NCBI GenBank assembly: GCA_012735435.1 | Contig: JAAYHH010000011.1 | Span: 14,141-78,140 of the forward strand | Reading direction: 5' to 3' | Length of the DNA: 64,000 nucleotides | Source: Bacillota bacterium | GTDB taxonomy: Bacteria; Bacillota; Limnochordia; DTU087 | Shown here: positions 1-7,980 of the stretch, one piece after another | Layout of the letters: each line of letters begins with the position of its first letter | Position numbering within the stretch: the first letter of the stretch is position 1 | Made by a program: the position numbers and the translations under genes | The notes under the pieces: model-generated | What the model was told of the DNA's origin: nothing | Databases searched by the model: none | Seen by the model: the letters and a program-made list of their open reading frames with translations, nothing else

Positions 1-316
1 CCATGCTTGAAGTGAGGAGTGCTTTTACAGCAACGCCTCCTGTGGGTCCGGTAAGTGGTGGTGTGTCAGGAGAGGAGATCTTTTGCCCAAGCCCTCCGAA
101 GCAGCCGCTAAACAGGGTGCTGACAGCAACAATCACAAGGATAGCAGGGGTGATCTTCCGGTGAGAGAACCTGTCCTTTGGCCTACATTGTGCTAGTGAC
201 ACAAAAAATCGCCTCCTTGTCCCATCAGGGCAAGGCGGCGATTAATACAGCGGCAAACTTCCTGTGCCTTCGCCTTCAGTATAGAAGGCGGTGTCAGGGC
301 TGTCAAGTACTGCCAA

Positions 317-1453
317 TCACTCCGGACCAATGGCGGCAAAGGGGTTCTTATCCAGGGAGGCTATGAGCTTCTCCTTATCTACATGGGTATAGATAGTCGT
401 TGTTGAAATGTGCTCATGGCCAAGAAGCCGCATCAACGTCCGCAAATCCTCGCCATTGAGATAAAGGGCAGTGGCAAAGGTATGGCGCAGCTTGTGAGGT
501 GTTAGCATCAATTTCTTACTCTCCGGCAGGTCGGTGAGCCGCACGTAATCCTTTAGCTTCTGCTGAATAGCTCTAGGTGTAATCCTGGTGTACTTATTCC
601 CGAGAAAAAGCGCCATCCGGTGCCGGCCTTTAGCTTTGTGGCCGGGACGCACCTTCTTGTATTCTGCCACTGCTTCCCGCACTGCGGGAGGCACTGGGAC
701 AGGACGGTTTCTACCGCCTTTCCCGCCGGTAACCCTGTAAAACTCAGTATCCGGTCCTATGTCATCGACATTCATCTGCACGACTTCTCCAATCCGCAGG
801 CCCATACTCAGCATAATCAGAAAAATGGCATAGTCCCGCTGGCACCCGTGCTGCCGGACGGTATTTAGAAAGGTAAGGGCCTCCTGAGCAGTTAAGTGCA
901 TGGGGGCTTCATTGCGGTGAATGGTCTTGGTCTGCAGATCTCGGATTAAAGAGGGGTCTGACAAAAGCTGATGGTCAAAGAGGTAGCTGAAAAACCGCCT
1001 CACGGCCACAATCTTGCGGTTGAGAGTGGTTTGGGTATACCCCAAGGTTTCTTTGAGGAATAGGAAATATCCGACCAGATCATCGGCTGTGACAGCCTCA
1101 AGATCCACGGTAAAACTGTCCAGCAGCCGACTGGCCTCAGGTCCCAGTCTGTTATCGTTGGCTGCAAGGGCAGTTTCCAGCCTGTGATATGCTGTCTTGT
1201 CCTGGGGCGGAGTTACACAGTCGCATCGGCCCAGAACAAGATGCAGTTTAAGAAGGCGCAGGTCCGATCGGTAAGCTTTGGCCGTGTTGAGGCTCCGGTT
1301 GATGCCCAACGCGGCGATAAATCGTTCAACTTGAAGGTCAAAGTCTAACACTGAGAATACCTCCGGTATATCCTTATGTAGTGTTGATTCGCTGCAGCCT
1401 AGGGCGCTTCCTTGGTTTTGACTGATCTTGCTGGAGGGACCCGCAAGAGACAA
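317..1453 (-). CDS. tyrosine-type site-specific recombinase/integrase (XerC/XerD-phage integrase family)
   Basis: 378-aa ORF; C-terminal catalytic motifs HKLRHTFA and LGHEHISTTTIYTHV match the R-H-R-Y tyrosine recombinase signature; SAM-like N-terminal core-binding region. Confidence 0.85.
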   Translation of the reverse strand: MSLAGPSSKISQNQGSALGCSESTLHKDIPEVFSVLDFDLQVERFIAALGINRSLNTAKAYRSDLRLLKLHLVLGRCDCVTPPQDKTAYHRLETALAANDNRLGPEASRLLDSFTVDLEAVTADDLVGYFLFLKETLGYTQTTLNRKIVAVRRFFSYLFDHQLLSDPSLIRDLQTKTIHRNEAPMHLTAQEALTFLNTVRQHGCQRDYAIFLIMLSMGLRIGEVVQMNVDDIGPDTEFYRVTGGKGGRNRPVPVPPAVREAVAEYKKVRPGHKAKGRHRMALFLGNKYTRITPRAIQQKLKDYVRLTDLPESKKLMLTPHKLRHTFATALYLNGEDLRTLMRLLGHEHISTTTIYTHVDKEKLIASLDKNPFAAIGPE

Positions 1454-1553
1454 TCAGGGAAGAGCCTTATGTGAAAAGCTTGTAAGACCTTATGATGGTG
1501 TTTATCAGCAGAGCGACAGGACAGTTGGATAGTTATCAATGCCACCAGGATGC

Positions 1554-1955
1554 TTAGGTGTCAGCAGGGCACTGGCGCCTGTAAAGATGCTGATCAAGGC
1601 TGAGGCACAAGATTTTTCTTCTAGATAAATGGCAAACTTCCCTGCATTGCGCAGAAGATATATTATGCGAAGTGGCGAATGTGGTTATTCTGGGTAGTCT
1701 ATTGCCTCCGGCTATGCCTCTAGGTCTTGTCTCATGTCTTGCTAAGCGACCTATCAACTCTTTCCCTCGCATTGCTGTCAATAAGTAATCGTTAGTTTCT
1801 TCCTTTTGAAGTTTCGAATGTATTTGGATGCTAAACGTGAAGCCATGGGTTTTAAAGCGGCTGTAATCCTGTGGTCCAACGGCTTCAATGGAAAGTGTAA
1901 TATCAAATGCCCAGCGTGCCACAGAACCATCAGCTTCATTGGATGGATCGCGCAC
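1554..1955 (-). CDS. hypothetical ORF in AT-richer segment; may be partly spurious
   Basis: 133-aa ORF; only the N-terminal ~70 aa look protein-like, the C-terminus is R/C-rich; local AT content is higher than in the flanking genes. Confidence 0.2.
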   Translation of the reverse strand: MRDPSNEADGSVARWAFDITLSIEAVGPQDYSRFKTHGFTFSIQIHSKLQKEETNDYLLTAMRGKELIGRLARHETRPRGIAGGNRLPRITTFATSHNISSAQCREVCHLSRRKILCLSLDQHLYRRQCPADT

Positions 1956-1992
1956 GGATTATAGCCCAGACACTCACACATGTGTTTCATCA

Positions 1993-2373
1993 TCAGTTGC
2001 GACAGACTGCCATCGACGGAATCATCAGTATCTGTCCCGGCTGTAGATTCACTGACTCCAACTGGTTCAGCTTCCTAATCTCATAAACGGTCTTACGGGG
2101 ATCAGTCCCGGGTTTTGTTCTGCGGGCAATGTCCCAGAGTGTATCTCCTTGACGGACTACCACCGTTTTGTAGCTGGGTTCAGGCATGCTGTTGGATACT
2201 ATCCCAGCACTGACATGGAGCCCAATGAGCACAGCTGCCAGCACTACCAGAAACATACCAAAGAGTTTTGCCCGTAGAGATATGCCGGTACGCCTCTTAA
2301 GAGCCGTTTGGACGTACTTCCCGTGAGATCTAGTATTCATGCCGCCAAACCTTGGTTTTATCATATCAGCCAC
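1993..2373 (-). CDS. yneA: LysM-domain membrane protein, YneA-like SOS-induced cell-division inhibitor candidate
   Basis: 126 aa; one TM helix (LFGMFLVVLAAVLIGL) followed by a LysM motif (VVVRQGDTLWDIARR...GQIL); divergent from lexA with LexA boxes between them, as for B. subtilis yneA. Confidence 0.65.
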   Translation of the reverse strand: MADMIKPRFGGMNTRSHGKYVQTALKRRTGISLRAKLFGMFLVVLAAVLIGLHVSAGIVSNSMPEPSYKTVVVRQGDTLWDIARRTKPGTDPRKTVYEIRKLNQLESVNLQPGQILMIPSMAVCRN

Positions 2374-2410
2374 CTCCGGAACAGATGTCCTCTAGAACGG
2401 ATGTCCGTGA

Positions 2411-2424
2411 CGAACATATGTGCT
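2411..2424. promoter_or_regulatory. LexA (Cheo-type) SOS box CGAACATATGTGCT in the yneA/lexA divergent region
   Basis: matches the Gram-positive LexA consensus CGAAC-N4-GTTCG with one mismatch; lies between divergent lexA and the LysM gene. Confidence 0.55.
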
Positions 2425-2439
2425 ATCTATAGAGTAACA

Positions 2440-2454
2440 CGAACAACTGTTTCG
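2440..2454. promoter_or_regulatory. second LexA/Cheo-like box CGAACAACTGTTTCG
   Basis: GAAC-N4-GTTT imperfect palindrome ~30 bp from the first box, upstream of lexA. Confidence 0.45.
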
Positions 2455-2579
2455 GTCAAGACAAAAAATGGTATAAAGACGAACGGGCGTTTGCAAAGCC
2501 GTTAATCCCTGTGTTATAATGGAAAAGACTAACGCTGGAACGGATTTTTCAGGTAACTGCCTTGGGAGGGGGCCAGCTC

Positions 2580-3200
2580 ATGCGAGAGCTCACGGAGCGA
2601 CAGAGGGAAGTGCTGGAATTTATCAAGGAACGGGTTCGGGAAAAGGGATATCCCCCATCTGTTCGGGAAATAGGCGAGGCTGTGGGGCTGCGGAGCAGTT
2701 CTACGGTGCATGGACATCTTCGGCGCTTGGAAAGTAAAGGATATATTCGACGGGATCCCACTAAACCCCGGGCAATAGAGATTATCCATGATGATGAGCC
2801 CGCAGAGAGTCCCATGATAAAGGACCTAGTGTCTGTTCCACTTGTAGGAAGTGTTACAGCCGGGCAGCCCATCCTGGCCGTGGAGAACATAGAAGATTAC
2901 GTCCCTCTTCCCAGGGACTTTGCGTCAGATGAGGCTACCTTTATGCTGCGGATCAAGGGAGACAGCATGATCGATGCAGGAATCCTCGATGGCGACTATG
3001 TCGTGGTGCGGCAGCAGCCGGATGCCACCAACGGAGACATCGTAGTGGCACTCTTACAAGATGAAGCCACAGTGAAGCGCTTCTATCGAGAAGCCGATCA
3101 CGTACGGCTGCAGCCTGAGAATCCCCTCTATGATCCCATCATCACTACCGATGTGCAGATCTTGGGGAAAGTCATCGGAGTCCTGCGGAGGCTCCACTGA
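2580..3200 (+). CDS. lexA: LexA repressor (S24 peptidase)
   Basis: near-full-length similarity to B. subtilis LexA ([56 protein letters not shown], Ser/Lys dyad region); RBS GGGAGGGGG 7 nt upstream of the ATG at 2580; the ORF-track start at 2562 adds 6 aa. Confidence 0.95.
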
Positions 3201-3304: not shown

Positions 3305-3679
3305 CTATGAGGCCGAGTTCTCGTATTCTTCCTTAGTAATGAAAGTGCCGGATTCCAGCTGCTTGTTGACCACCCTATATGCTCCGTCGAATTCTAGGCG
3401 CAGCTGCATTCTGTTGAAACACCTATTGCCTACTATCGTCTTATTGATGAACATTTGGTATCCTTGGCTGCCTGCTTCCTCTCGCTGGATTTCCGATGAT
3501 TTGCGCAGGCGCAAAGCTAGCTTTTCCCCGCATTTGCTGCACTGAACGTAGACCCATACCGCATCCCTGGTAACCTCTACTCCCGGCTGCCTCGGGGCCT
3601 GACCCGCAGATGTCAATTTGTTCACCAGTTTCGCCAGTAAGCTCAATCTTAAACCTCCATAGCCTTTTCTGCTTGCCAT
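3305..3679 (-). CDS. hypothetical protein with CxxC motif
   Basis: 124-aa ORF; contains CSKCGEK, a possible Zn-binding motif. Confidence 0.35.
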   Translation of the reverse strand: MASRKGYGGLRLSLLAKLVNKLTSAGQAPRQPGVEVTRDAVWVYVQCSKCGEKLALRLRKSSEIQREEAGSQGYQMFINKTIVGNRCFNRMQLRLEFDGAYRVVNKQLESGTFITKEEYENSAS

Positions 3680-4068
3680 TCCTCAGACTCACTTGCCAAA
3701 GCACCCGATGTCCTCAGGACCTGCATCTGCTCCGAAGTCATTCCCAGCAGTGTGAAGAACATCTCCAGTGCCTGTTCTGTGCCCCGGAGCTGGGGATCAG
3801 CATTGTCCTGGGTACCAAAAAGAGGTAGTTTGGCATACTCCGCTGCCGCGGTCTTAAACGCCAAATCTACCCCTCTTGCTTCTACTAGCTCCATCAACTC
3901 AGTGTATTTCTGCCGTCGGCTTTCAGCTTGCACTTTCCAGAAATCGGGGTTGGATGTCAAGCTGCTGGCCAGAAGATCTTGCTTGGCTAGGCGCTTGAAC
4001 TTCTTCAACCCCCTGAGTACATCATCTTTGGCTACTTGTATCATTACGCATCCCCCCTCAATTGCCAT
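3649..4068 (-). CDS. hypothetical protein
   Basis: 139-aa ORF, no recognisable motif; co-oriented with and overlapping the next ORF. Confidence 0.4.
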   Translation of the reverse strand: MAIEGGCVMIQVAKDDVLRGLKKFKRLAKQDLLASSLTSNPDFWKVQAESRRQKYTELMELVEARGVDLAFKTAAAEYAKLPLFGTQDNADPQLRGTEQALEMFFTLLGMTSEQMQVLRTSGALASESEEWQAEKAMEV

Positions 4069-4323: not shown

Positions 4324-5010
4324 CTAGAAGGCACCGTGACGCTTAAGCTCACGGACTGCTTGAGGAGCTTGAAGATAGTGATAGATGGCCATGAAGTACT
4401 GCTGCTTTTCTTTATATGCAGCACTTAGGAGCAAATGGGTATACTGGTTTTCCCGGTCCAGTTCCAGTGCGTACTCTAGATGATATAGAGCACGATCAAT
4501 ATCTCCTCCCTGGGCATAGGTGAAGGCACAGAAATTCCGGGTCCAGACGTTGTTTGGGTCTAAACTAATGATCCGTTCAAAATAGCCGGTTGCTTGCTCT
4601 AGATCGCCAAAGGCGTAGCTGCCGAAGGCGGCACAATTGAGAAGCAGCACATCATCTGGAGAGTGACGCAGCTGATTTAGTTTATCCAAGACGAAGCTGG
4701 CGATTTCCTGCCGATATTCCTTATCGCCAGCAATGGACAATTCTTCCATTGCTTGTGCAAGCAACCCCATATTGGCGTAGGCGATTCCCCTTAGCAAACG
4801 GCTCTCTACTGTGTCGCTCTCCTTCTGGTCTTCAATAACTCGGGCCCAGTCTACAACCTGATTCTGAGGCTTGTCCTCGGCATAGACATAATCAGGCAGG
4901 ATGATCCCGGCTGCGGCAAAACAGCAAATAAGGACCATCAAAGATATATTTGCAATTAGCTGCTGCCAGAGATTATGATTTTTCATAACCCCACTCTCCC
5001 TATCCGCCAA
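4324..5010 (-). CDS. TPR-repeat protein with N-terminal membrane anchor
   Basis: 228 aa; N-terminal TM (LMVLICCFAAAGIIL) and repeated A/Y/L-rich 34-aa TPR-like units. Confidence 0.6.
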   Translation of the reverse strand: MADRESGVMKNHNLWQQLIANISLMVLICCFAAAGIILPDYVYAEDKPQNQVVDWARVIEDQKESDTVESRLLRGIAYANMGLLAQAMEELSIAGDKEYRQEIASFVLDKLNQLRHSPDDVLLLNCAAFGSYAFGDLEQATGYFERIISLDPNNVWTRNFCAFTYAQGGDIDRALYHLEYALELDRENQYTHLLLSAAYKEKQQYFMAIYHYLQAPQAVRELKRHGAF

Positions 5011-5248
5011 ATAACAAATCCACTCCCAAGAATGCTGTCTGCAGCACTACTGAGGCCTGAAATATCCAAATCGCCAACCTGATTAGCACTGCCAGCAGTC
5101 TCAAGCAGCGGTTCTGGTGAACTTCCTCGGACACACTAGATCCCAAAAGGCTCTCCCATGCCCAGACATATACACCAATGCCCAAGAAAACCAAAACCCC
5201 GCTTGCCAGCGCTGTGGACAGCATAACTGTACTTAGATGCATGATCAT
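5000..5248 (-). CDS. small membrane protein
   Basis: 82 aa with two hydrophobic helices; 11-nt overlap with the downstream TPR gene suggests an operon. Confidence 0.4.
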   Translation of the reverse strand: MIMHLSTVMLSTALASGVLVFLGIGVYVWAWESLLGSSVSEEVHQNRCLRLLAVLIRLAIWIFQASVVLQTAFLGVDLLFGG

Positions 5249-5295: not shown

Positions 5296-6063
5296 CTAAT
5301 CCAGATTCCAACTGGCCAATTCCTTCATAAACTCCTCATGGGTCAGCTGGAAGCGGACCGGTGTGATGGAAATCCAACCATCCTTCACTGCCCTGGTGTC
5401 TGAATCGGGGCCTTCATCCATATCAACGGCTTCCCCCGTCAGCCAGTAATACGGCCGTCCCCAAGGGTCCTCCCGCTTTTCTACAAAGTCGCGGTATCTA
5501 CGGATCCCCACCCGGGTGATCTTAATTCCTTTCATCTCCTCTGCCGGCAGTCGAGGCAGATTTATATTCAATAAAGTGTCTTCCGGCAGGCCGTTTTTCA
5601 TAATAGCCCTGGCAGCTCCAGCGGCTAGCTGCGCTGCTTTATCCAATCCCAGCCACTCTTCAGAGTGATCAGATATGGATACTGCTATGGCGGGAATTCC
5701 CATGATTAACCCTTCCACTGCCGCCGATACTGTGCCGGAATACAGGACATCAGTGCCTAGGTTGGGCCCAGCATTTACTCCCGAAACCACTAACTGGGGC
5801 CGGTGTTCCAGCAGCACCTCTACCCCCAGTTTTACACAATCGGCTGGAGTACCATCCAGCTGGAAAGCCTGGACGGCACCGGGGATGCCGCTGATTTCAA
5901 CGGCCCGCAATGGTCGATGCATTGTTACAGCATGTCCCGTTCCGCTTCGCTCCTGATCCGGCGCCACTACACTTACAGTTCCCACTTCACTTAGGGCCCT
6001 GACCAATTCCCGCAGTCCCCTTGATCTAATTCCATCATCATTGGTCACGAGAATGTTCACCAT
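5296..6063 (-). CDS. surE: 5'/3'-nucleotidase SurE
   Basis: MVNILVTNDDGIRSRGL N-terminal SurE signature; start moved to MVNIL (ORF-track start 6084). Confidence 0.9.
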   Translation of the reverse strand: MVNILVTNDDGIRSRGLRELVRALSEVGTVSVVAPDQERSGTGHAVTMHRPLRAVEISGIPGAVQAFQLDGTPADCVKLGVEVLLEHRPQLVVSGVNAGPNLGTDVLYSGTVSAAVEGLIMGIPAIAVSISDHSEEWLGLDKAAQLAAGAARAIMKNGLPEDTLLNINLPRLPAEEMKGIKITRVGIRRYRDFVEKREDPWGRPYYWLTGEAVDMDEGPDSDTRAVKDGWISITPVRFQLTHEEFMKELASWNLD

Positions 6064-7329: not shown

Positions 7330-7980
7330 CTATAGCTGTCTTCCGATCTTAGCCTTAATCCGGCAAAGGGCATTATCAATAGACTTGGTATGGGTACCCA
7401 GCTCTTCGGCCATCTCTTTGTAAGATAACCCGTTGATGTAAAGCTTGAAAACTCTGTACTCAAAATCACTGAGGACTTCTTTTATGTAGCGCTGAGTATG
7501 CTGAAGCCTTTCCCGATCGATAACCAGCGCTTCTGGATCATCTACCCTGTTGTTGGAGAGCACCTCCATCAGGGTTCGGTCTCCCTCGGCATCATAAATG
7601 GGTTTGTGTAAAGATGTGTACGAGTTAAGGGGGATATGCTTCTGCCTGGTAGTGCCCTTGATGGCACTGATAATATTGCGGGTGATGCACAGCTTGGCGA
7701 AGGACCAGAAAGATGAGGAACCTGGAGTAAAATCACGGATTGCCTTGTACAGCCCGATCATCCCTTCTTGCAAGAGATCATCATCCTCAGCTCCCTGCAA
7801 GAAGTAGGGTCGGGTCCATATGTAGACTAACTTCTGATACTTGTACAACAAGTAATCAACTGCATCTTGACGACCAGCCTGGGCTTGCTTCACGATGTCT
7901 TCATCAGGCAAATCCCGGAAGGCCTTGAACCCATCGAAATGATAGTTGAGCGGCAATGCACTACCCATGGACATGACCAC
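7330..7980 (-). CDS. sigH: RNA polymerase sigma factor SigH (Spo0H)-like
   Basis: 216 aa; strong similarity to B. subtilis SigH (YLLYKYQ, LQEGMIGLYKAIRDF, TRQKHIPLNSYTSL.KPIYD..DRTL, SIDNALCRIKAKI). Confidence 0.8.
   Translation of the reverse strand: MVMSMGSALPLNYHFDGFKAFRDLPDEDIVKQAQAGRQDAVDYLLYKYQKLVYIWTRPYFLQGAEDDDLLQEGMIGLYKAIRDFTPGSSSFWSFAKLCITRNIISAIKGTTRQKHIPLNSYTSLHKPIYDAEGDRTLMEVLSNNRVDDPEALVIDRERLQHTQRYIKEVLSDFEYRVFKLYINGLSYKEMAEELGTHTKSIDNALCRIKAKIGRQL

Follow-up and report, generated by a model that had tools for sequence, protein, structure and literature searches.

Organization of the lexA–recombinase locus

At the left end of a 64,000-nucleotide (nt) stretch of DNA from a Bacillota bacterium (contig JAAYHH010000011.1; Limnochordia, DTU087), referred to as the window throughout, lexA, a small LysM gene, an AT-rich spacer, and a gene encoding a tyrosine recombinase are located next to each other. 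The recombinase gene and a short site within the spacer constitute a putative Xer/dif module, whose relatives and possible function are described here. Coordinates are positions within the window, and L-numbers (L001, etc.) denote related loci from species-level genome bins or metagenome contigs. The recombinase relatives were drawn from species-level genome bins, and further loci were obtained in a metagenome scan. The following features were assigned:

317–1351, minus strand: Xer-type tyrosine recombinase, 344 amino acids (aa), with a GTG start 8 nt after GGAGG at 1360–1364
1352–1992, no strand: AT-rich non-coding spacer, 641 bp, 46.0% GC
1646–1673, minus strand: dif-type core site, 28 bp, ACTTCGCATAA-TATATC-TTCTGCGCAAT as read on the recombinase strand
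1993–2364, minus strand: YneA-like LysM gene, 123 aa (LysM PF01476, 3.7e-11), conserved adjoining lexA in most relatives
2394–2453, no strand: three LexA-type boxes (2394–2407, 2411–2424, and 2440–2453) in and downstream of the lysM promoter
2459–2454 and 2436–2431, minus strand: lysM promoter, −35 TTGACC and −10 TACTCT, respectively, with the hexamers read from the sequence
2480–2493, no strand: LexA-type box CGAACGGGCGTTTG, one mismatch to CGAAC-N4-GTTCG, overlapping the −35 box of the lexA promoter
2491–2520, plus strand: lexA promoter, TTGCAA-18-TATAAT with a TG extension (consensus scan 10/12)
2580–3200, plus strand: lexA (TIGR00498 269 bits, cut-off 110.95; PF01726; PF00717)

The start codons of three genes were reassigned. 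The mechanical open reading frame (ORF) of the recombinase covers 317–1453 and encodes 378 aa from a TTG codon. However, the gene probably begins with the GTG at position 1351 and encodes 344 aa, because homologues begin at residue 35 of this ORF and GGAGG precedes the GTG. The original prediction, made from the sequence of the window, was therefore right in placing a tyrosine recombinase on the strand of the LysM gene, but its length of 378 aa is probably too high and the spacer, which spans 1352–1992, is longer than was assumed. The LysM ORF spans 1993–2373 if read from a GTG; its start is probably the ATG at 2364, which lies behind a GGAGG. For lexA, the mechanical ORF begins at TTG 2562, the family model aligns from residue 7, and the ATG at 2580 is probably the start.

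A conserved site with dif-type architecture

The gene order surE, tetratricopeptide repeat (TPR) gene, two small genes, lexA, divergent lysM, gap, and recombinase is kept in five relatives. When the segment spanning lexA and the recombinase start was aligned, the coding parts and the LexA boxes could be matched; the gap was unalignable save for a near-invariant island of approximately 31 nt. In the window, this island corresponds to positions 1646–1673, 295 bp upstream of the recombinase start, and displays an 11-6-11 layout with near-palindromic arms. It occurs once in the 64 kb, where no occurrence is expected by chance. A survey of related loci (up to 21 kb; L014, L015, and L136 were covered in part) recovered the site once per locus, 5′ of the recombinase gene and with matching orientation. 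The distance to the gene is 66–629 bp in 16 loci, eight of them from the genome scan and eight from the metagenome scan, with 12 distinct sequences. In four lineages the site is detached from the gene, by 9.8 kb (L013), 4.3 kb (L135), 6.8 kb (L137), and 6.9 kb (L138), but still single and in the same orientation; stretches of 4–10 kb with other genes may thus lie between it and the recombinase gene or lexA. Since it persists far from the gene, its role cannot be just that of a recombinase promoter or operator or of a lysM terminator.

Alignment of 14 distinct recombinase-linked sites yielded the consensus C-AcTTCGcATAA-TAnnnn-TTCTgCGaAnt-G, a dyad-symmetric core of the form ACTTCGCATAA-N6-TTCTGCGAAGT. 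In the consensus, 10 of the 11 arm positions are mirrored, and for arms extended to 14 nt the count is 8–13 of 14; a single T/G asymmetry between the arms (CATAA vs. CAGAA) is retained in all 14 sites. The central 6 bp varies between lineages (TATATC, TATGGA, TAAACC, TATACC, and TATGTC), while the arms are kept. In relatives at 65%–70% identity, unchanged arms surround TATGGA, TAAACC, TATACC, or TATGTC. In the sites of tyrosine recombinases, the arms bind the protein and the centre need only match between the partner sites; conserved arms with a drifting centre are the pattern that would be expected of such a core site. Several proteobacterial dif sites have the same inner left arm, TTCGCATAA, and low G+C content and palindromy are named as dif features (PMC2731167).

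The spacer surrounding the site had been described in the original prediction as an AT-rich segment with doubtful ORFs, which was borne out: its GC content of 46.0% (window mean 52.7%) is in the lowest 1% of 640-nt windows, and its ORFs are without family matches. A protein-coding spacer was rejected, as the ORFs of 133 and 71 aa have no Pfam or NCBIfam match and nothing is conserved beyond the DNA island. The 133-aa ORF gave weak tblastn matches (48% identity over 54 aa in L001 and 36% over 58 aa in L007), unlike the flanking genes, which are approximately 90% identical to their counterparts in these loci. The match in L001 maps to window positions 1560–1721 and covers the conserved DNA island, and because of this overlap the matches are not regarded as a sign of coding. 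A structured RNA or riboswitch was rejected as well, with no Rfam family in the whole window and an RNA fold z-score of +0.77 compared to shuffled controls. Neither an intrinsic terminator on the minus strand nor a consensus promoter was found in the 641 bp using simple consensus scans, which non-canonical elements could escape.

Strand bias around the site

A search for a change in GC skew or composition had been proposed along with the original prediction, and a skew change from positive to lower values is indeed seen at the site. To the left of it, the skew is +0.06 over the 1.6 kb available in the window; to the right, it is negative in every 4-kb step over 62 kb, with a mean of −0.094. 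Of the 57 long ORFs (≥120 aa), 53 are encoded on the minus strand and run in the direction of the site. In essence, the window covers a single replichore arm, the end of which is at the left edge.

The same signature was observed in related loci. L018, whose recombinase is 91% identical, has a skew of −0.078 over 11.4 kb on the recombinase side and a matching sign change. In L016, converging genes accompany a skew of +0.088 on one flank and −0.045 on the opposite flank. The cleanest test is provided by L132, L133, and L134, because the site is far from the gene (9.8 kb) in these loci. Their other flank was obtained via a neighbouring peptidase gene, and the maximum of the cumulative skew was located 31 nt from the start of the site, with a skew of +0.09 to +0.115 on one flank and of about −0.05 on the opposite flank. 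The left-side skew exceeded the right-side skew in all 15 loci tested, which represent about eight lineages. A change from positive to negative is characteristic of a terminus rather than an origin. At the scale of local sequence, a terminus-like skew is thus present in the window, L016, L018, and L132–L134.

A search for polar motifs resembling FtsK-orienting polar sequences (KOPS) or SpoIIIE recognition sequences (SRS) was also conducted in the 62-kb arm. For the 7- and 8-mers with the strongest skew (e.g., GAGCTGG and AAGAAGA), the location of 93% of the genes on one strand is a confounding factor, and the known polar motifs GAGAAGGG and GGGNAGGG are too rare in the arm for an assessment of their skew.

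The recombinase protein

The recombinase contains the domains PF00589 (3.2e-34) and PF02899. It remained under every curated Xer cut-off of NCBIfam, with scores of 179.3 for XerC (TIGR02224, cut-off 335.15), 169.8 for XerD (TIGR02225, 329.6), 166.2 for XerA (NF040815, 220), and 114.5 for XerS (NF003462, 267). The best sequence match in the PDB was XerD of Escherichia coli (7.9e-25), followed by archaeal XerA (7.4e-24); the match to XerH was weaker (5.4e-13). All six catalytic residues (R, K, H-x-x-R, H, and Y) are aligned with those of E. coli XerD (R148, K172, H244, R247, H270, and Y279). Compared to XerD, the N-terminal DNA-binding domain carries an insertion of approximately 40–50 aa. An AlphaFold2 model (predicted local distance difference test, pLDDT, 81.7) predicts two extra helices for this insertion, and the best fold match of the model is XerA. 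The family is narrow, with 19 clusters at 63%–93% identity and the next proteins at no more than 37%, and appears to be vertically inherited.

Related modules in Clostridium and other outgroups

The nearest proteins outside the family are annotated as XerC of Clostridium and related genera (31%–35% identity), among them those of Clostridium perfringens and C. malenominatum (32%–33% identity to the window recombinase). These proteins share part of the insertion and a C-terminal NP(L/F) motif. They are also under all curated Xer cut-offs (222–231 bits on the XerC/XerD test), and they and the window protein are about equally distant from XerC, XerD, and XerA. In C. perfringens and C. malenominatum, the gene order is xer, a small convergent ORF divergent from lexA, lexA, a methionine gamma-lyase gene, hfq, miaA, and mutL. 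An 11-6-11 site, ACTTCGCTAAA-TATACA-TTTAGCGAAGT, which is a perfect palindrome in C. perfringens, was found 360 nt (C. perfringens) or 24 nt (C. malenominatum) upstream of the annotated start of the recombinase gene:

L139, 5640–5667: site of C. perfringens
L140, 5640–5667: site of C. perfringens
L141, 5949–5976: site of C. malenominatum

A strong switch from positive to negative skew occurs within about 1.5 kb of the clostridial site. The dif prediction of Kono et al. failed for C. perfringens str. 13 (PMC3025954), and in the literature searched no paper was found with these site sequences in this context. We propose ACTTCGCTAAA-TATACA-TTTAGCGAAGT as a candidate dif of C. perfringens on the basis of its sequence and location.

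Three further homologues, from Papillibacter and two metagenomic contigs (L142–L144), have sites with the arms A(G/T)TCA(A/C)CAAAA-TAWAAA-TTTTG... 30–510 nt upstream of the gene, which suggests that arms and protein vary together. A skew switch is present in L143, and no lexA was found near the recombinase gene in these three loci.

A lexA neighbourhood is also found in Clostridium, and the proximity of lexA and the recombinase gene is old. It most likely reflects a shared position near the terminus rather than coregulation, because the relative orientation of the genes differs, the link is broken in several lineages, and a LexA box in front of the recombinase is lacking. The dif site of Bacillus subtilis, ACTTCCTAGAA-TATATA-TTATGTAAACT, is likewise situated approximately 25 kb from lexA/yneA.

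The gene of C. perfringens that is divergent from lexA (L139, 7177–7569, minus strand) encodes a very acidic protein of 130 aa, which is not a LysM protein. It contains an N-terminal Cys-rich motif (CDVYNGKICDNCGDC) and has no Pfam match. The intergenic region carries a GAAC-N4-GTTT box just upstream of lexA.

Comparison with known Xer systems

Among the known systems, XerA/dif of archaea (Pyrococcus and Thermoplasma) consists of one recombinase and a 28-bp site with 11-bp inverted repeats and a 6-bp centre, and gene and site form a module in some species (PMC5357621). The 11-6-11 site described here has the same layout, and XerA ranked first by fold and, among solved structures, second by sequence. 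Differences are the bacterial (Bacillota) host, the NF040815 score (166 vs. 220), and the helical N-terminal insertion of about 40–50 aa. Independence of FtsK has been reported for XerA.

In XerS/difSL of streptococci and lactococci, the gene of a single Firmicute recombinase adjoins the site at the terminus and forms one module with it (PMC5357621, PMC2731167). The linkage of gene and site is shared with the locus studied here, and the RQ..QQ residues of XerD are missing in both proteins. However, difSL is 31 bp long with an 11-bp centre and unequal arms, whereas the site in the window has 28 bp and a 6-bp centre, and it does not fit the XerS/difSL description. XerH/difH of Helicobacter and Campylobacter also relies on a single recombinase of similar length (363 aa), with linkage of gene and site in most species. 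The sequence similarity to XerH is weaker than to XerD and XerA, though, and the difH arms AGTTATGAAAA and AAAAGTTTGA are unrelated to those found here; they recall the ...CAAAA-TAWAAA-TTTTG... sites of L142–L144.

With XerC-XerD/dif (E. coli; CodV-RipX in B. subtilis), the locus has in common a 28-bp 11-6-11 site at a skew switch, the left arm TTCGCATAA, the catalytic residues, and the fold. It departs from this system in that a mirror image of the left arm takes the place of the canonical XerD arm, gene and site are linked, and the protein remains under the XerC and XerD cut-offs.

A putative Xer/dif module at the replication terminus

The recombinase is read as a chromosome dimer resolvase because a conserved dif-type site lies at a terminus-like switch in strand bias. 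Recombinase (317–1351) and site (1646–1673) probably form an Xer/dif module for chromosome dimer resolution at the replication terminus, as predicted from sequence features. Protomers of the recombinase would occupy both 11-bp arms, which are nearly identical, the two sites of a chromosome dimer would synapse, and strand exchange across the 6-bp centre would convert the dimer to monomers before division. A translocase of the FtsK/SpoIIIE type presumably licenses the strand exchange. We thereby infer recombination activity, dimer resolution, the stoichiometry of a single recombinase, and translocase control. The dif-type site itself was not part of the original prediction, and the recombinase lineage of the putative module is one that the curated models do not name.

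A single recombinase, the one described here, may suffice for the system, as in the case of XerA, XerH, and XerS, and we consider the chances for this to be about even. The possibility arises because the arms mirror each other and both resemble an XerC-type arm, an XerD-type arm (TTATGTnAAnT) is missing, and the site is linked to the gene. In the literature, linkage of gene and site is suggested as a feature that may characterize Xer systems with one recombinase (PMC5357621, PMC2731167), and it was found here in the 16 loci with a distance of 66–629 bp and a uniform orientation.

Several observations weigh against the assignment as an Xer/dif module. The C-terminus of the protein is devoid of the RQ..QQ residues with which E. 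coli XerD contacts FtsK. The half-site pair TTCGCATAA-N6-TTCTGCGAA is common in unrelated metagenome contigs and, hence, not lineage-specific. L006, L137, and L138 show a weak or ambiguous change in skew, and within the clade of the window the cumulative skew peaks at lexA, which has the opposite orientation and is 1.4–1.6 kb away from the site. There is no change of gene orientation at the site, as the recombinase gene and approximately 5 kb of downstream genes are on the same strand. Uniqueness of the site and its position opposite the origin were assessed at the local scale only. With regard to the single recombinase, Kono et al. analysed only strains with XerCD orthologues, and C. perfringens was included (PMC3025954).

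The restriction of that strain set is in line with a two-recombinase system, in which the site would be a dif processed together with a second, XerD-like protein encoded elsewhere, similar to CodV/RipX of B. subtilis. This explanation differs in stoichiometry only, as the dif reading is common to both. It is also favoured by the label XerC, which NCBI assigns to the clostridial relatives, and by the ability of B. subtilis RipX to bind both half-sites (PMC5357621). However, the arms are near-mirror copies (perfect ones in C. perfringens) without an XerD-type arm, and the linkage of site and gene is described as typical of single-recombinase systems (PMC5357621, PMC2731167). The window protein and its clostridial relatives are, moreover, under the equivalog cut-offs for XerC and XerD. 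The lack of a second recombinase in the 64-kb window points in the same direction, but is a weak argument. A second recombinase is a possible, though less likely, explanation.

The SOS cassette and its relation to the recombinase

The original prediction had recognized lexA as divergent from a small LysM membrane gene in the classic yneA arrangement, which was confirmed by TIGR00498, PF01476, and the conserved LexA boxes. The two LexA boxes it named (2411–2424 and 2440–2453) exist, but the total is four, with the boxes at 2394–2407 and 2480–2493 in addition. Searching the whole 64-kb window for CGAAC-N4-GTTCG with up to two mismatches yielded 15 matches compared to 16.9 expected, i.e., no overall enrichment, and four of the 15 are within 100 bp of the lexA/lysM intergenic region. 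One box is placed between the −35 and −10 boxes of the lysM promoter, two are just downstream, and the fourth overlaps the −35 box of lexA. All four are in conserved columns of a six-sequence alignment of the window and five relatives. Clusters of three to four boxes occupy the same intergenic position in the relatives checked, down to those with a recombinase of 65% identity; equivalent clusters are found in L001, L016, L135, and L137. In L004, an insertion of about 250 bp (approximately 4950–5200; alignment columns 177–350) inside the lexA/lysM intergenic region carries an extra CGAAC-type half-box (CCGAACGCATATTC).

The LysM protein narrowly missed the cut-off of the YneA model NF010723 (55.5 bits vs. 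60). Its architecture and setting are those of YneA, with an N-terminal hydrophobic or transmembrane segment, a C-terminal LysM domain, a gene divergent from lexA, and LexA boxes in the promoter. YneA-like SOS-controlled gene is a fair description, and a division-inhibiting function would be in keeping with it. The arrangement resembles the lexA and yneA-yneB-ynzC region of B. subtilis, in which lexA is also divergent from a small gene encoding a transmembrane segment and a LysM domain, with LexA boxes in the shared intergenic region. In B. subtilis, yneB is a resolvase-like gene (serine recombinase family) inside the SOS operon. The next gene in the window, in contrast, encodes a tyrosine recombinase at a distance of 641 bp with its own recombination site in between, and the linkage of lysM and recombinase is not conserved among relatives.

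An SOS-induced recombinase operon was one of the two explanations given in the original prediction. Read-through from the LexA-repressed promoter of the yneA-like gene would then induce the recombinase together with the division inhibitor. Both genes are on the same strand, the consensus scans detected neither a minus-strand terminator nor a promoter in the spacer, and the order of lexA, lysM, and recombinase is kept in most close relatives; in Clostridium, too, a homologous gene adjoins lexA. In C. perfringens and C. malenominatum, however, the recombinase gene and the gene divergent from lexA converge, and no LexA box was found upstream of the recombinase in any lineage. The loci L006, L013, and L138 are without lexA and lysM on that flank, and 4–7 kb including genes on the opposite strand lie in between in L135 and L137. 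Furthermore, neither the sequence of the spacer nor its length, which ranges from about 370 bp to 1.3 kb, is conserved. We therefore regard the SOS-induced operon as the poorer reading and as unlikely, although read-through may occur in the lineage of the window.

Mobile element and invertase as alternative explanations

The second explanation of the original prediction, an integrase at the edge of a mobile element to the left of the window, is not supported and is very improbable. The element would be a prophage, an integrative and conjugative element, or an island, and the site would be its attL or attR. The recombinase matches a generic phage integrase family (phrog_1, 9.7e-43), and the region is plastic, with differing insertions in L004, L006, L013, L135, and L137. 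Nevertheless, conserved chromosomal synteny is found on both sides across relatives with a recombinase of 63%–91% identity: downstream, the lipoprotein gene, SIR2, thyX, dnaD/dnaC-like genes, and purD; on the other flank, the order from surE and the TPR gene to lexA. Searches for repeats, att sites, and inverted repeats around the recombinase gave short chance-level matches only, no tRNA was detected in the window searched, and the site has no second copy in the window or in the scanned loci of this lineage. Among 2.9 million viral contigs, no relative of the recombinase was found, and its family is, as described above, narrow and apparently vertical. What was observed is essentially a conserved chromosomal Xer-type gene in relatives without flanking repeats, an outcome that had been named beforehand as one that would refute the original prediction.

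A DNA invertase for a phase-variable switch, which might for instance flip a promoter in the spacer, is suggested by a tyrosine recombinase next to a non-coding AT-rich segment and a weak match to a tyrosine-type invertase model (NF007371, 2.2e-11; cut-off 222 bits), but hardly deserves consideration, given a single site that is kept even 9.8 kb from the gene and has no inverted partner in the 64 kb or in the locus of any relative.

Surroundings of the site and neighbouring genes

The surroundings of the site appear as a plasticity zone. Insertions and losses of synteny are concentrated at the site or the recombinase gene (L006 1–2900, L013 196–10000, L135 1612–10000, L137 2852–10000, L138 1729–8617, and L004 7306–10509). 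On the upstream flank, ATP-binding cassette (ABC) transporter genes replace lexA in L006 and L013, and other unrelated genes are located there in L138. Unrelated genes cover 4–7 kb between site and recombinase gene in L135, L137, and L138. In L004, an ORF of 1067 aa is situated between the recombinase and the lipoprotein gene.

In L144 (1–7956), genes with a Zot domain (PF05707) and a rolling-circle Rep_trans gene abut the palindromic site at 7943–7970, upstream of the Xer homologue. A segment of 1401 nt is repeated 2436 nt apart, with one complete site within the locus. Filamentous phages that integrate at dif via the host Xer machinery show such an abutment of genes and site, and the arrangement in L144 is suggestive, and no more, of a filamentous-phage-like element integrated at dif. 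Together with the repeated insertions, these phage-like genes suggest that the site may also be an entry point for foreign DNA.

In unrelated soil contigs (scan of L019–L128, e.g., L036, L042, and L059; 55%–67% GC), the half-site pair occurs as GCGAACTTCGCATAA-N6-TTCTGCGAACTTCGC with a highly variable centre. One of the contigs, L101, is a head-to-tail assembly of a circular replicon of 4769 bp with one site (seen at 143–170 and 4912–4939) and no recombinase, similar to a plasmid cer or pdif site. L081, with sites at 172–195 and 5307–5330, is probably circular, too. Recombinase-like ORFs with 29% identity near sites with the same arms (L022 and L026) look truncated or phage-associated and were not used as evidence.

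Downstream of the recombinase gene, two further features were assigned at the left end of the window:

1–202, minus strand: 5′ part of a lipoprotein gene with the lipobox LFSGC, continuing beyond the left end of the window
278–306, minus strand: sigma-70-like promoter TTGACA-17-TATACT ahead of the lipoprotein gene (consensus scan 11/12; pattern match alone)

The lipoprotein fragment is 75% identical over 61 aa to the protein of L001 (tblastn), and a lipoprotein gene is located downstream of the recombinase in most relatives (L001, L006, L013, L017, L135, and L138). The complete proteins comprise 336–378 aa and are encoded on the recombinase strand (L001 7253–8359, L006 4278–5414, L013 11119–12129, and L135 11105–12121). 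They possess a lipobox, a weak DUF4493 match, and an fn3 match, but no PHROG match. On the other side of the locus, lexA is adjoined by two overlapping small genes on the minus strand (3305–3679 and 3649–4068, 124 and 139 aa, respectively), which have no Pfam or NCBIfam match and are 60%–93% identical in the relatives that keep lexA at this position.

Possible implications for chromosome dimer resolution in Clostridia

With the prediction of an Xer/dif module, the AT-rich gap and the integrase become a concrete, testable cis element, and the 28-bp site may mark the replication terminus in metagenome-assembled genomes of uncultivated Bacillota. The generic annotation of the recombinase as an integrase, on the other hand, invites false calls of prophages or islands.

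Combining the observations, one might go further and assume that a broad range of Clostridia (the uncultivated biogas lineage, Clostridium sensu stricto, and Oscillospiraceae-type bacteria) resolve chromosome dimers by means of an undescribed, sub-threshold Xer lineage that acts alone on a gene-linked, mirror-symmetric 28-bp dif. Where the module directly follows a yneA-like gene, read-through might couple it to SOS and division arrest. In its entirety this proposal is tentative, and we would not expect it to hold in all its parts. If it were true, a lone-acting Xer lineage would explain why the dif prediction of 2011 failed for C. perfringens. Since C. perfringens is genetically tractable, it could show whether one recombinase suffices. 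If it does, Xer systems with a single recombinase would be used by Clostridia in addition to streptococci, epsilonproteobacteria, and archaea.

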